Assembly: GCF_024700885.2 (NCBI RefSeq)
Contig: NZ_CP117016.1
Strand: one strand, 5' to 3'
Length of the DNA stretch: 64,000 nucleotides
Source: Escherichia coli
Lineage (GTDB): Bacteria; Pseudomonadota; Gammaproteobacteria; Enterobacterales; Enterobacteriaceae
Under the pieces are notes generated by a model. That model was not told the origin of the DNA and did not search any database. It saw nothing but the letters and a program-made list of their open reading frames with translations. Below, in pieces: positions 38,129 through 44,475 of this stretch. The position numbers and the translations under genes are program-made. Positions within the stretch are counted from its first letter, which is position 1. Every line of letters starts with the position of its first letter.

Positions 38129-38167
38129 AAAACACTAAAGGGGCTTTTAAGCCCCTTCTGTATGCTG

Positions 38168-39325
38168 TTAATCGTCGTCCTGTGGCAGTTCCAGAATCTT
38201 GATCGCGTTCGAATCCACCACGCCACCGCCTAAATATTTCTGCGTGAAAATTTTGATGAAGCCCGGCTCTGTGAGGTTGTCCGGTCTGGTGCGAACACCT
38301 GTTTCGTGATCAACAATGTAGTAACCGCGTTTGAAGTCACCCAGGGCAATAACGTTATCCGGCATAAACTCCAGATATTCGACCGGAAGGCCCAGTAACG
38401 TATCAGGATCACCCGCCTGTAAACGGTCGCGCCAGATGTAATCACCGTTCGCGTTCTTCACCTTCTGAAGTTTTGCCGCCGTCGTGGAGTTAACCACCCA
38501 GACCGCGTTTTTGCGGTATTTTTTACGTAATGCAAATTTCAGGTCGATCAGCGGGTCCGCAGATGTCCACGCCAGAGATTCGGAAGGTTTAATTACCTGC
38601 AACGTACCAAAATCACGCTCTTTGTCGTTCTTCTCTGCACGGGGTACGGATAAAAAGCCTTTTGCTTTTTTGTCACCGTCGCCCACAACCAGATCGCTTT
38701 CTTCGGTTTCCGTGAAGTTGTCGCCAATCTCGCCCGTCAGCCATGAAAGGATGTCCACATCGGAAAAATCCACGATTTCCTGCGTGGTGCGCGGGTACGC
38801 ATAGACCGGATACAGCTTAATGCTCACCTCGTTAATCTGCGGGGTGCTGGTCTGTTCGCGTGCCTTACCCTCTTCACCGTGGTTAACGGTCGCACCGCCA
38901 GCGGAAACAAGCTGCTTAAACTCGTTGCTGCTGATTTTCTTCACGGTACAGATGCGGCGCATGGTGGATTCATCCGTCAGCATTCGCATGATTTCGGTGT
39001 TCAGTTCGGGGATAACGGTATAACCACCATCAGCGGGAACGCCTGTACTTAATGCGCGGGTTTCACCTGTCAGAATGTAGTGACGTAGTTCGGCTGGGTC
39101 AGTGGTCTGACTGCTTTTACCTGGCTTGCTGCGCTCTTCGTCTGCAATGGCTTCAAGGCGGGAAATGTCTTTATCGAGGGATTCAGCTTTAGCGCGTAAT
39201 TCGTCAAATTTTGCGCCCTCAGCATCGTTAAGACTGCGGTTTTCTTTTTCCGCGTTCTCCAGCATGTCGCGCATCTGATTTTTAATGGCGGTTTTCTGCT
39301 GGCGTAATTCGATTATTCTCGGCAT
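38168..39325 (-). CDS. major capsid protein (HK97 fold) with N-terminal delta domain
   Basis: 385-aa ORF; N-terminal ~100 aa charged and coiled-coil-like, then a capsid-like region. Confidence 0.85.
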   Translation of the reverse strand: MPRIIELRQQKTAIKNQMRDMLENAEKENRSLNDAEGAKFDELRAKAESLDKDISRLEAIADEERSKPGKSSQTTDPAELRHYILTGETRALSTGVPADGGYTVIPELNTEIMRMLTDESTMRRICTVKKISSNEFKQLVSAGGATVNHGEEGKAREQTSTPQINEVSIKLYPVYAYPRTTQEIVDFSDVDILSWLTGEIGDNFTETEESDLVVGDGDKKAKGFLSVPRAEKNDKERDFGTLQVIKPSESLAWTSADPLIDLKFALRKKYRKNAVWVVNSTTAAKLQKVKNANGDYIWRDRLQAGDPDTLLGLPVEYLEFMPDNVIALGDFKRGYYIVDHETGVRTRPDNLTEPGFIKIFTQKYLGGGVVDSNAIKILELPQDDD

Positions 39326-39362
39326 AAAAAAAGTCCTGGGGTTAAGTAAGGAACTCCAGGAC
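39326..39362 (-). terminator. terminator-like hairpin + U7 immediately 5' of the capsid start codon
   Basis: Minus strand reads gtcctggag…ccaggac then ttttttt then ATG; the AGGA Shine-Dalgarno lies inside the 3' stem arm. Confidence 0.5.
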
Positions 39363-39582
39363 GCGGCAAAAACTCAACCGTTTTTCATAAGGAAATCAGC
39401 AATCGCACCGATCGTTTTCCCGCCTGGTAATGAATATTGGCGAGAACATTAACAGGCGGAAAAGTGGCCCCAGCGTCCTGGCACCACGGGCGAGAATAAT
39501 CATGATTCAGTTCGGGTAAAATATGCCGATCCGCTCAGTGAACAACGTGGAACAACCACGAACAAATAATTTACAAAACATG

Positions 39583-39605
39583 ACAAAAAGCCGGATTGCT
39601 CCGGC
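39583..39605 (-). terminator. intrinsic terminator after the replication-module genes
   Basis: Hairpin gccggagcaatccggc followed by a T-run on the minus strand, just below the 93-aa ORF stop. Confidence 0.55.
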
Positions 39606-39612
39606 TGTGTGA

Positions 39613-39894
39613 TTATCTGTCCTGGTAATTTCGCCATATTTCATTACCAGCACCATCCATACCCATTTCGGCATAAGTGCGATCGACCGCCTTTTTCAGG
39701 TCTCCGTAGTTATCCGGCGGCTCCGGTGGCCTCTGTGCCTTCCTGGAACATTCCAGCCGTCGCATCGTGATGTGATGCCGTTCCTTGTCTGTCTCCACCA
39801 GTTGCATGACTTCACCCCATCGCGCCGACGCTCTCCGGTAAAAGCCTTTCGCCTCCAGTTCTTCCGCTATGCGGTCATGTACCATCGTCCCCAC
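39613..39894 (-). CDS. hypothetical protein
   Basis: 93-aa ORF, operonic with ssb. Confidence 0.5.
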   Translation of the reverse strand: MGTMVHDRIAEELEAKGFYRRASARWGEVMQLVETDKERHHITMRRLECSRKAQRPPEPPDNYGDLKKAVDRTYAEMGMDGAGNEIWRNYQDR

Positions 39895-40871: not shown

Positions 40872-42626
40872 TTATAAAAACGCGTCGCACTCGTCTGTTG
40901 TTATTGCGTTAGTCTGCGTTACTCCCTTAACTTTCCGCGTAATATATTCATGTCCGTAAACTTTCGCGGCTGGCTTCATAGCCTTGCCAAAGTCATTTAC
41001 GTTTAGCGGTTTGCTCCTGCCTGCGTACGCCATAAACGCCAGATAGACGCGGTAAAGGCTGTTTCTGGTCGTGTACTTCACTGAATCGCCACCGCCGCCC
41101 ATCATCAGGCCGCGTGCTTCCTCCAGAAAATTCAGGAACTGGCAAAACTCAATAACCGGATCCGTCTGTTGCTTTATTGCCAGAGCTTCATCACCGTCAC
41201 GCTGTTCCAGTAGTAAAGCCCGTGCCTTCTCAGGGTCGGTAAAGTTCGCCAGCAATCGGCGGATAATGACAGGGATTTCAGCCGCGATCTTTTCCGGTAG
41301 CTCCCTGTCTTTTTCGGCCTCACTGACGATATTGTCGAAACGGAAAATCACGCGACGACGTGCCACACCTCCGGCCCGTTCGGTGAATATCATCGGGTTA
41401 TTGTTGGTCGCCAGCACCACCGCCCTGATTACCGCCGTGAAACGCTTTTCGTATTTCGGGTTAATTTCCACGGGGTCACCGCCCGTGATTTTCTTGATGC
41501 CCGTTCCTTCGCCTGTATATTTCGGCTGGTCAGCCAGGACGATAAGACGACTCCCGACAACCTGCGCACGTCCACCAGCATCATCAAGCGATGTCATTTC
41601 AGCGCTTACCGTGTTCTGTTTCCCTGCCAGAAGGCTGGCTATGTGTGTGAATGTACTTTTACCGCTCCCGCCGTCTCCGGTGGCCTCAATAAACATCTGC
41701 CAGTCGTACCGGTTCGCCATAATCATGTACAGCGCGGCACATATACGCATCATCTTGCGCGGGTCTTTTCCGGCTGCGTGCTCAAGCCATTTATGAAAGT
41801 TTGGCGCGTTATCGCGGATGTTCTCCCCTGGTGCTGGTGGCGTGTACTCAATGCCGTTGTGCGTGGTGATCCAGTTCTCCGGCGTGTGCGGGGAAAATTC
41901 CCCCGTTTTCAGGTCAAGCGCACCATTGGCGAACGGCAACAAATCGCCGGACGGCTCGCCCATTGGTTCGGCAATAACTTTTAACGCTTCCACGGCGTTA
42001 TTGATTACGCGCTTGCTGAAAGTGGCCCTGTGCTCTGAATAGATCGCCACCATTTCGCGGCTAAGTTCCATTGTGCTGACCGGACACCATACCCCGCCGC
42101 GCCATACGTGAACGATTTCACTTTCAGGATGTACGCAAACGCCATCAAAGCGATCGGCAAGCAGTTGCGCGCGCTCACTGTCCGCCATCTGCGAAAGTTG
42201 CGCCTTTTGCTTTACCGGAAGCTCAATGACCAGACCATCAGAAAGATTCTGGCGCTCACGGGCCAGATATTCGCGCCAGTTCTCCACCTTCTGACCGTGC
42301 ATACCATCAGGGTAAAAATTTGCATCCTGTACGCCTGCCGCCGCCAGCTTCTGACCAATCGCCTTTATCATTACTGGCGCAAGATATCCGGCCCTGAATA
42401 TGCGCACGGATTTTCTGCCTTCCGGCACAATTTGCAGCTTATCCAGTTCGGATAACTGCTGCTCCCCAAGCCACACAGGAGGCTCATTATCTCCGGCCAT
42501 ACGCGCGTCATGTTCCTGCCATTGTTTTGCGTGTGACCAGGCATCACTACCCGCAAAAATAATGACTTCTGTTTCTTTGTGTTTTATGCCGCGTGACTGC
42601 TGTTTTACGTTCGGTGCCAGTTTCAT
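40872..42626 (-). CDS. replication protein: primase/helicase (P4-alpha / D5-like)
   Basis: 584-aa ORF with Walker A GDGGSGKST. Confidence 0.8.
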   Translation of the reverse strand: MKLAPNVKQQSRGIKHKETEVIIFAGSDAWSHAKQWQEHDARMAGDNEPPVWLGEQQLSELDKLQIVPEGRKSVRIFRAGYLAPVMIKAIGQKLAAAGVQDANFYPDGMHGQKVENWREYLARERQNLSDGLVIELPVKQKAQLSQMADSERAQLLADRFDGVCVHPESEIVHVWRGGVWCPVSTMELSREMVAIYSEHRATFSKRVINNAVEALKVIAEPMGEPSGDLLPFANGALDLKTGEFSPHTPENWITTHNGIEYTPPAPGENIRDNAPNFHKWLEHAAGKDPRKMMRICAALYMIMANRYDWQMFIEATGDGGSGKSTFTHIASLLAGKQNTVSAEMTSLDDAGGRAQVVGSRLIVLADQPKYTGEGTGIKKITGGDPVEINPKYEKRFTAVIRAVVLATNNNPMIFTERAGGVARRRVIFRFDNIVSEAEKDRELPEKIAAEIPVIIRRLLANFTDPEKARALLLEQRDGDEALAIKQQTDPVIEFCQFLNFLEEARGLMMGGGGDSVKYTTRNSLYRVYLAFMAYAGRSKPLNVNDFGKAMKPAAKVYGHEYITRKVKGVTQTNAITTDECDAFL

Positions 42627-42922
42627 TTTTTACCCCTGAATCCGTTAATCATGGTTTTCAGCTTCTGGATGTTTGCCCGTGCCCTGGCGTTGCTGGTGGA
42701 CACGTTATGCGGCGCGGTCTGTACCAGAGAAAAATCACGCCGGAACTGATAAACAGGCATCACGCAATCATATTCGTAACCTTCACGGCGGTAGGTTACG
42801 CGCCGTTCTTCCACGCCCTTAATCATTACCGTGCCGCCGTACTGGTCGCGGTAAATATCGCCGCGCGTAAATTTAGGGTGAGTGTTGCCACTGGCAGTTA
42901 AGCCAGAATATTTAAGTTTCAT
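42623..42922 (-). CDS. hypothetical protein
   Basis: 99-aa ORF; stop overlaps primase start (ATGA). Confidence 0.55.
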   Translation of the reverse strand: MKLKYSGLTASGNTHPKFTRGDIYRDQYGGTVMIKGVEERRVTYRREGYEYDCVMPVYQFRRDFSLVQTAPHNVSTSNARARANIQKLKTMINGFRGKK

Positions 42923-44379: not shown

Positions 44380-44475
44380 AGCTACCTCGATACTTTCGCT
44401 ATCGTTGGTGGTTAGAAGCCCGGTTAGTGTTAGCGCACTGCCGGGTTTCGTCGTTTCTGCACCTTGCGCCAACAA

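Follow-up and report, generated by a model that had tools for sequence, protein, structure and literature searches.

Transcripts that control the operon they begin are best known from the attenuators (trp, his and pyrBI, the Bacillus subtilis trp leader with TRAP, bgl, and riboswitch platforms), in which a terminator with its U-run stands in the leader ahead of the first structural gene, and from RNAs that mask the Shine-Dalgarno (SD) sequence, namely, the maturation leader of MS2, the fold-back of hok, and mom/Com of phage Mu. Phage-inducible chromosomal islands of the capsid-forming kind (cf-PICIs) pass between species through the release of tail-less capsids, which borrow their tails from phages, and how their capsid operon is switched on is not described in the searchable literature; a literature search returned no paper linking PICIs with attenuation or antitermination. 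Here, a stretch of 64,000 nucleotides (nt) of Escherichia coli DNA (assembly GCF_024700885.2, contig NZ_CP117016.1), referred to as the window, was analyzed. According to the PGAP annotation of an identical island, it holds a cf-PICI inserted in tqsA, and in this island a hairpin (H3) followed by seven U abuts the start codon of the major capsid gene. The features at this junction are as follows.

38168 to 39325, minus strand: gene of the HK97-fold major capsid protein, a 385-amino-acid open reading frame (ORF), from the ORF list and the PGAP annotation of the identical locus.
39326 to 39332, minus strand: U7 tract directly 3' of the H3 stem; U8 in O157:H7 and the Sakai Sp7 island.
39333 to 39362, minus strand: hairpin H3, with 7 bp, an A.C mismatch, 3 bp, and an 8-nt loop.
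39334 to 39337, minus strand: SD sequence AGGA within the H3 3' arm, 8 nt ahead of the ATG, read from the sequence.

We consider it somewhat probable that H3 and U7 are the last element of a structured leader of about 165 nt, belonging to the cf-PICI packaging operon and acting as a bistable attenuator encoded in cis. Transcription of the leader would start at a conserved sigma-70-like promoter of its own, located after the terminator T1 that closes the early operon. With the hairpins H1, H2, and H3 all folded locally, H3 and U7 would stop a fraction of the RNA polymerases just before the capsid ATG, and in the transcripts that escape, H3 would hide the SD sequence. With the H3 5' arm captured by the apex of H1, the terminator would be prevented and the SD sequence freed, and a competing partner at the 5' end of the leader would thus offer a cis-encoded way to bypass H3. 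The switch would set the flow of capsid operon expression from the promoter, the low state being the equilibrium of the full-length leader, and the balance could be tipped by the speed or pausing of the polymerase or by a factor, from island or host, acting to open or stabilize H1; a factor from the helper phage would not be required. Of this model, the anatomy, the conservation, the covariation of H1 and H2, the complementarity, and the computed energetics are shown, and we infer the transcription start, the termination, the switching, and the trigger. The leader elements involved are listed below.

39464 to 39487, minus strand: H1, the 5'-terminal hairpin GTGGTG-CCAG-GACG-CTGG-GGCCAC, from predicted folds.
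39415 to 39463, minus strand: H2, a long hairpin TTTTCCGCCTG...CAGGCGGGAAAA with a variable apical part.
39394 to 39413, minus strand: H2b, a small lineage-specific hairpin GATCGGT-GCGATT-GCTGATT, from predicted folds.
39356 to 39364, minus strand: the H3 5' arm with 2 further nt, GCGTCCTGG, whose possible alternative partners are the H3 3' arm (7 bp) and the H1 apex (9 bp).

The likeness to the attenuators extends to a mutually exclusive pairing that uses the 5' arm of the terminator and to folds that are near isoenergetic in the nascent RNA, with the terminator winning once it is complete. In contrast to them, the cf-PICI leader has no leader peptide, recognizable ligand, or protein-binding repeat, its competing partner is the apex of the extreme 5' hairpin, about 110 nt away across the covarying H2, instead of an adjacent segment, and its terminator hairpin also holds the SD sequence, so transcription and translation would be gated together. 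Attenuation through a leader peptide found no support, the frame that opens at the 5' GUG not being conserved and its stops and frames shifting with insertions and deletions in H2. The SD-masking RNAs share with the cf-PICI leaders a hidden ribosome site whose state is set by a distant 5' segment, and a third cf-PICI lineage, described below, has such a closing helix between its 5' and 3' ends over an AGGAG. Unlike in these RNAs, the 5' element of the lineage represented by the window (type A) pairs with the opposite arm and would unmask the SD sequence, and the hairpin carries a U-run; also unlike mom/Com of Mu, no Com-like protein was found in scans of nine small island ORFs.

On the minus strand, positions 39362 to 39326 read GTCCTGG-a-GTT-ccttactt-AAC-c-CCAGGAC and then TTTTTTT, followed by ATG CCG and preceded by GCC GC. 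The two arms of the 7-bp stem (39362 to 39356 with 39339 to 39333) form five G-C pairs, and inside them RNAfold placed three further pairs (GTT/AAC) beyond a 1x1 A.C mismatch, capped by an apical loop of 8 nt. The stem, the seven T, the contact with the capsid ATG (39325 to 39323), and the AGGA in the 3' arm had been pointed out in an earlier note on this DNA and were confirmed to the base; the folding of the region that it called for gave -12.7 kcal/mol for H3 alone and z = -2.5 for its 61-nt context. Two features of intrinsic terminators were found in H3, a stable G+C-rich stem within the range of about 5 to 14 bp and a U run 0 to 2 nt after it. Among the 95 runs of at least six T in the window, H3 came about 12th when the hairpins next to these runs were ordered by stability, in the company of clear gene-end terminators. 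It was not called by the consensus terminator scan because the rule of that scan required a loop of 3 to 8 nt and disallowed internal mismatches; the arms of H3 lie 16 nt apart if the inner helix across the A.C mismatch is left unformed, and the loop is 8 nt if it is formed.

No purine-rich stretch other than the AGGA was present within 20 nt of the capsid ATG; in line with the proposed occlusion of the ribosome site, the sole SD sequence is buried in the hairpin. The start codon itself is backed by the PGAP annotation of the identical locus and by alignment of the N termini (MPRIIELRQQK versus MKKLIELRQQK). A leaderless promoter within H3 was ruled out, as no -10-like hexamer was found at the right distance. 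Because no promoter fits between H3 with its U-run and the ATG, every capsid transcript crosses H3, and some read-through or unmasking is therefore required. The leader also contains a four-codon mini-ORF, ATG AAA AAC GGT TGA (39374 to 39388, minus strand), whose A5 run can pair with U7 in the minimum free energy (MFE) fold at full length; without an SD sequence and missing from the relative L245, it is probably untranslated.

The position of H3 within a leader follows from the region upstream, which contains the following elements.

39579 to 39606, minus strand: T1, the intrinsic terminator that closes the early operon, AGCCGGA-GCAA-TCCGGCT with TTTTTGTCATG after it, from the terminator scan.
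39562 to 39577, minus strand: conserved motif TTTGTAAATTATTTGT, which precedes the predicted start site by about 85 bp.
39536 to 39565, minus strand: three 10-bp direct repeats with a TTGTTC core (TTGTTCGTGG, TTGTTCCACG, and TTGTTCACTG), candidate activator sites, read from the sequence.
39493 to 39520, minus strand: predicted packaging-operon promoter, with -35 TTTACC (39520 to 39515), a 16-nt spacer, and -10 TATTCT (39498 to 39493), the -10 ending 5 nt before H1.

T1 lies directly 3' of the stop codon of a gene for a PerC-like regulator, its hairpin (39606 to 39589) being followed by TTTTTGT. Since T1 ends the early operon and a conserved promoter-like site precedes H3, H3 is an element of the leader (5' untranslated region), and a transcript is predicted to start at about 39487 with an untranslated leader of about 165 nt that ends in H3. 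The suggestion that H3 terminates read-through from upstream accordingly stood as far as the terminator anatomy of stem and U-run goes, but not as to its object, the upstream genes being already ended by T1 with the promoter-like site in between; for the same two reasons, H3 as the terminator of the PerC-like gene was ruled out. A cos site or a replication origin at H3 was set aside by position, the origin being taken by us to lie 3' of the primase gene and cos between the HNH gene and terS, as the layouts known for HK97 and PICIs suggest.

From T1 to the capsid ATG, some 280 nt are kept as one block, even in O157 islands with a different gene upstream. The promoter-like site was inferred from positional homology, TTTACA-16-TATGTT/TATCTT being kept in all long-leader lineages. 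In the relative L003, an equivalent terminator precedes it, and the site after this terminator is the sole such match in 700 nt. More distant cf-PICIs, with capsid DNA about 77% identical, share the motif TTTGTAAATTATTTGT, the TTGTTC repeats, and a sigma-70-like TTTAC(A/T)-16 nt-TAT(C/G)TT, which always ends 5 nt ahead of a conserved hairpin. In 54 loci, which comprise 46 distinct leader sequences, the motif precedes the capsid ATG by 212 to 257 nt; it takes the form of the variant TTTGTAAATAT in distant lineages and has a single exact copy within the window; the repeats are nearly unchanged in L003-type islands, whose leaders otherwise differ. Together, motif and repeats (39536 to 39577, about 50 to 90 bp upstream of the predicted start) probably bind an activator, for which the PerC/PchE-like protein and AlpA are candidates.

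The 165-nt leader folded with an MFE of -62.4 kcal/mol (z = -5.28), and none of 200 shuffled sequences was as stable. Within type A, the H2 of the window shows a C-to-U change that yields a G.U pair, and in H2b, which is missing from L245, a G-to-A variant improves one pair. The inner stem of H1 differs by compensatory changes from the majority form CTCA/TGAG, and its loop GACG is kept across about 25 species. A scan for the H1 pattern in one genome per species returned 37 places, about 25 of them in Enterobacterales (Serratia, Proteus, Hafnia, Erwinia, Pectobacterium, Klebsiella, Citrobacter, Kosakonia, Pantoea, and other genera). Twenty-three Enterobacterales loci have the full series of H1, H2, a C/U-rich linker, H3 (GGTTTCACGTC...ACG(A)GAAACC), 4 to 7 nt, and the capsid ATG, the other Enterobacterales loci being truncated or degenerate copies; the leader was also present in more than 100 contigs of viral collections.

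A covariance model (R1) was built from 43 majority-type leaders, and 73 sequences, 67 of them distinct, were realigned to it. Across the 67 distinct relatives, all 12 basal pairs of H2 showed compensatory changes, and in the whole structure 93.7% of cells were paired, compared to 35 to 51% in slid controls. The covariation score was 0.337 versus 0.118 in shuffled alignments and was reached by none of 500 shuffles. H1 showed three compensatory pairs; H1 and the arms of H3 are near invariant in sequence. Many of these sequences had been collected by way of H1 or the upstream motif, and they were aligned to fit the model; loci ascertained through the capsid protein gave the same picture. R1 did not detect the window leader at E ≤ 0.01, and what links type A to the majority type is therefore their common flanks and position and a partly similar sequence (CGTCCTG..CTTAACC). 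A scan of the window and three relatives against Rfam 15 gave no match at E ≤ 1 over the leader region. On these comparisons of sequence, the leaders are an undescribed, covarying family specific to cf-PICI packaging operons.

Two groups of leaders depart from this plan. In AT-rich cf-PICI lineages (L221, L227, L231, L254, and others), the leader is about 40 nt long, has no stable predicted hairpin, and ends in AAAACACC-ATG with no SD sequence; the H1-H2-H3 module of about 110 nt thus seems either to have entered between the promoter and the conserved start region, which lacks an SD sequence, or to have been lost from there. Some Proteus-like leaders (L309 to L315) have a U-rich tail (TTCTTCTTTTTGTG) after H2 instead of the C-rich linker, and H2 may act as a weak terminator in some of them.

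The competing partner of the H3 5' arm lies in the apex of H1, where CCAGGACGC (39481 to 39473) is complementary over 9 nt to GCGUCCUGG (39364 to 39356), a match equaled in 12 of 5,000 shuffles (P about 0.002) for type A. In the majority type, a pair of entirely different segments in the corresponding place is again complementary, with (A)GACGUGA facing UCACGUC(U) over 7 to 8 nt (118 of 5,000 shuffles, P about 0.02). The longest perfect complement of H1 downstream was the H3 5' arm in 62 of 64 leaders, 38 to 43 nt before the leader end, and the seven core H1:H3 pairs were paired in all 67 distinct sequences. Changes among the core pairs comprise one U-A to G-C exchange (five sequences, probably one event) and an A-U to G.U wobble, two G.U changes being tallied. 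The exchange is best seen in the clade of L325, found through its capsid and then by a targeted scan for H3 variants, which has H1 CTCC-GACG-GGAG and H3 GGTTTCCCGTC; here, H1 has G for U, and two other changes match this one, namely, that of its partner within H1 and one from A to C at an H3 base that is bulged within H3 itself. In nascent prefixes of the leader, the H1:H3 pairing was the MFE fold until the H3 3' arm was transcribed, by 0.1 to 2.9 kcal/mol over the fold with H1 closed, and once this arm was present the three-hairpin fold won by 7.6 to 9.5 kcal/mol. With the H3 5' arm shuffled, H1 stayed intact in 94% of trials.

The same complementarity would be seen if the H1 apex and the H3 5' arm were inverted copies of a protein-binding DNA motif (TCACGTCT; GCGTCCTGG in type A) about 100 bp apart, through which a repressor loops or roadblocks the start of the operon, the terminator look being a by-product. 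H1 and the arms of H3 hardly vary across genera while H2 varies freely, the two copies change together, and the majority-type H3 lacks RNA-type covariation. This reading we nevertheless hold to be improbable: RNA covariation is evident on the same strand in H2, which lies between the two sites, the stem of H1 has compensatory changes, the three-way change of L325, including the partner inside H1, is predicted by RNA pairing, and the strictly kept U-run after the stem would have no role.

The stem and U-run were read in 40 sampled type A copies, among which some contigs had been fetched twice. The U-run was always 7 or 8, never shorter, and the H3 stem was kept or improved in all copies except two rare weakening variants; the common type A variants pair the A.C mismatch (-14.6 kcal/mol) or hold the stability, and the variants TT and TG leave the helix as good or better. 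In L245, stem (-14.0 kcal/mol) and U8 persist despite a replaced loop and an entirely replaced H2-H3 linker. Compared with the H3 of L003-type leaders, type A keeps a partial 5' arm and the loop (CGTCCTG..CTTAACC) and has a new 3' arm, a true AGGA, U7 to U8, and new first codons. That this hairpin is a functionless product of recombination between the accessory-gene slot and the capsid gene has in its favor that the packaging module is known to be preceded by a variable slot and that the last 27 nt or so before codon 4 are unlike all other lineages, as a recombination scar would be. It is scarcely credible in view of the leader z score of -5.3, the 9-nt complementarity to H1 with its low P value, and a stem and U-run that outlast replacement of loop and linker.

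A hairpin with U-tract was present in 15 of 16 leaders of type A, in 5 of 8 of the third lineage, and in none of the 36 distinct majority-type leaders ascertained through the capsid. The third lineage (L248/L280, L300, L312, L316, and L319, all contigs of viral collections) has no homologues of H1 or H3 and a different hairpin before the ATG. In five of its eight leaders, U7 comes after an H2-like hairpin at about 50 nt ahead of the ATG, and a long-range 5'-3' helix is part of the MFE fold and covers the AGGAG and start region. Judged by sequence, this lineage seems to have solved the same control problem independently. A leader terminator thus arose at least twice, which argues that termination was selected and is not incidental.

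These counts also bear on the idea that H3 is a translational operator only, masking the SD sequence and start, with the U-run serving as an A/U-rich spacer between SD and AUG or as an enhancer that binds S1, and with negligible termination in vivo. Majority-type leaders carry no SD-like purines outside the H3 3' arm, which has GGAA or GAGAA, and masking of the ribosome site is therefore a feature shared by all long-leader lineages, yet the U-run is not. The spacing of 8 to 9 nt between SD and AUG is optimal, the 16-nt gap between the stem arms slows closure of the hairpin, and capsids are made without induction. Set against this, a perfect U7 to U8 after a G+C-rich stem of the stability found here is a canonical terminator signal, never reduced below seven U in the sampled copies, and the hairpin with U7 that the third lineage acquired independently does not touch the SD sequence, which is hard to explain by translation alone. 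A purely translational role is a serious alternative to the bistable attenuator, though in our judgment an unlikely one.

The earlier note had suggested that the head operon is gated by antitermination or by a trans-acting activator, possibly from the helper phage. Some bypass is needed, given that all transcripts pass the hairpin, but the helper part was not supported and, for this leader type, was contradicted. The Sakai Sp7 island, to which that of the window is close, carries the same leader, with U8, in front of ECs_1590, and its gene order equals that of the window island. Combining three papers, with no confirming coordinates found, Sp7 is taken to be OI-51/CP-933C, that is, EcCIEDL933, and EcCIEDL933 is published to make capsids without helper induction. 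Therefore, any block is leaky or bypassed by the island, and a helper-encoded antiterminator is unnecessary. This helper independence, read out as transduction and not as capsid mRNA or protein, comes near the finding that the earlier note itself had named as speaking against its proposal.

A block of upstream transcription overcome by a processive antiterminator or activator of the helper phage (Q-, N-, or put-like) would find its model in the late control of lambda (PR'-qut-6S RNA-tR', with read-through by Q), where, as here, a promoter is followed by a noncoding leader of 165 to 195 nt and an intrinsic terminator before the head genes. Known helper phages of cf-PICIs include relatives of HK022 and HK97, and induction of the island by helpers requires the island gene alpA, whose expression the helper activates. 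We regard this reading as very improbable. T1 already ends upstream transcription, and unlike in lambda the terminator abuts the ATG and holds the SD sequence, and capsids are made without a helper. No Q-like gene was matched among nine small island ORFs, the larger genes being annotated as unrelated, and scans of these nine ORFs with PHROGs and NCBIfam gave only excisionase/AlpA, a PerC-type activator, and unknown families, with no antiterminator or RNA-binding family. The literature offered as a lead an antiterminator AlpA of Pseudomonas aeruginosa, which has at least its name in common with the AlpA-like excisionase or regulator of the island. No Q-binding or sigma-dependent pause element was found, H1 in the initial transcribed region showing no TAnnnT-like or -10-like element. 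Phage late regions show no resemblance to the leader; when both leader types were compared by blastn with 50,697 phage records, only three of these matched, at least one of them, the best, being a cf-PICI-like element filed as a phage. With the put RNA of HK022, the leader shares two adjacent stem-loops at the 5' end of the transcript (H1 and H2, about 73 nt). It differs in sequence from putL and putR (read from NC_002166 via the operator repeats), whose motifs GAACGGC...GTCGGG...GGATGA are absent from the leader when compared by eye, and H2 is free in sequence, unlike the sequence-specific put stems. Neither the ORF scans nor the comparisons with phages and put thus turned up an antitermination component of the kind proposed.

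Several points weigh against the bistable attenuator itself. The U-tract is missing from most related leaders, so termination is not the conserved function of the family and could be incidental, and the wide span between the stem arms of H3 is long for an efficient terminator. The H3 of the majority type is conserved in sequence without covariation, which leaves its helix unproven by comparison. As the alignments read, few independent events lie behind the H1:H3 pairing (type A versus majority, one clade, and two wobbles), and the complementarity could equally reflect two inverted DNA motifs. H1 is local and forms first, so the alternative needs strand displacement within about 25 to 35 nt of transcription, and the pairing may rarely form without a factor. 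As capsids form uninduced, the block is leaky. The promoter-like site of the window matches 8 of 12 consensus positions, under the scan threshold, and literature searches on the island and its locus tags returned no start-site or 3'-end data, the RNA ends being those predicted above.

The island around the leader has the composition of a cf-PICI of about 15 kb, with int, alpA, and a primase module, genes for an HK97-type capsid, protease, portal, connectors, HNH, TerS, and TerL, and no tail or lysis genes. The capsid gene heads the co-directional packaging operon (protease, portal, connectors, HNH, TerS, and TerL), which runs down to about 32985, and upstream of it lie genes for the integrase, an AlpA-like regulator, Icd-like proteins, primase, SSB, and the PerC-family regulator.

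39613 to 39885, minus strand: small PerC-family (PchE-like) regulator, the last gene of the early operon, from PGAP, 87% identical to Sakai PchE ECs_1588 and matching PHROG transcriptional-activator families.

About 358 of 5,426 complete E. coli genomes carry most of a 321-base capsid-proximal query (window 39150 to 39470), with 94.8 to 100% identity in the sampled rows; about a dozen of these genomes were read at the hairpin itself. In O157:H7 and relatives (L008 to L010, L012, and L451), an extra segment of about 350 bp lies between pchE and T1, with the leader block undisturbed, and holds a 74-amino-acid hypothetical ORF (ECs_1589) and a fragment misannotated as trigger factor. Its place ahead of T1 agrees with the published variable accessory-gene slot upstream of the packaging module.

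Elsewhere in the island, a DUF4222 protein of 99 amino acids (42623 to 42922, minus strand) shares 80% identity with RgdR/ECs1581, which has been published as regulating type III secretion. A 9-bp hairpin with a weak U-tail (38137 to 38158, minus strand; GAAGGGGCT-TAAA-AGCCCCTTT) lies 10 nt past the capsid stop and before the protease gene, and may be a partial terminator or mRNA stabilizer yielding excess capsid message. A subthreshold Rfam match to the SymR antitoxin RNA (44380 to 44452, plus strand; 33.3 bits versus a gathering score of 61, E = 0.005) on the strand opposite to the Icd-like genes may be chance or an antisense RNA.

The likely control region of the cf-PICI capsid operon is thereby located across Enterobacterales, as a conserved promoter with upstream repeats and a structured leader of about 130 to 165 nt, and a concrete, testable model can be offered in which H1 competes with H3 and the EcCIEDL933 lineage has a terminator set against the ATG. 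If true, the model would explain how basal capsid production is set without a helper, would provide handles for engineering delivery particles based on cf-PICIs, and would add to the cis-regulatory RNAs a covarying family that is not in Rfam. The modest reading alone would still leave a clear case of a combined terminator and SD-masking hairpin in the late operon of a satellite. More tentatively, and with doubt outweighing confidence, the leaders may form a satellite-specific family of riboregulators, in which polymerase kinetics or a factor of the island or the host would read the near-invariant H1 with its loop GACG, and H1 would decide, through competition for the H3 5' arm, whether a cf-PICI makes capsids. 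Tail piracy, which is based on the "spontaneous" production of tail-less capsids, would then go back to a regulated decision at the RNA level, which in the type A lineage would act on both termination and translation.

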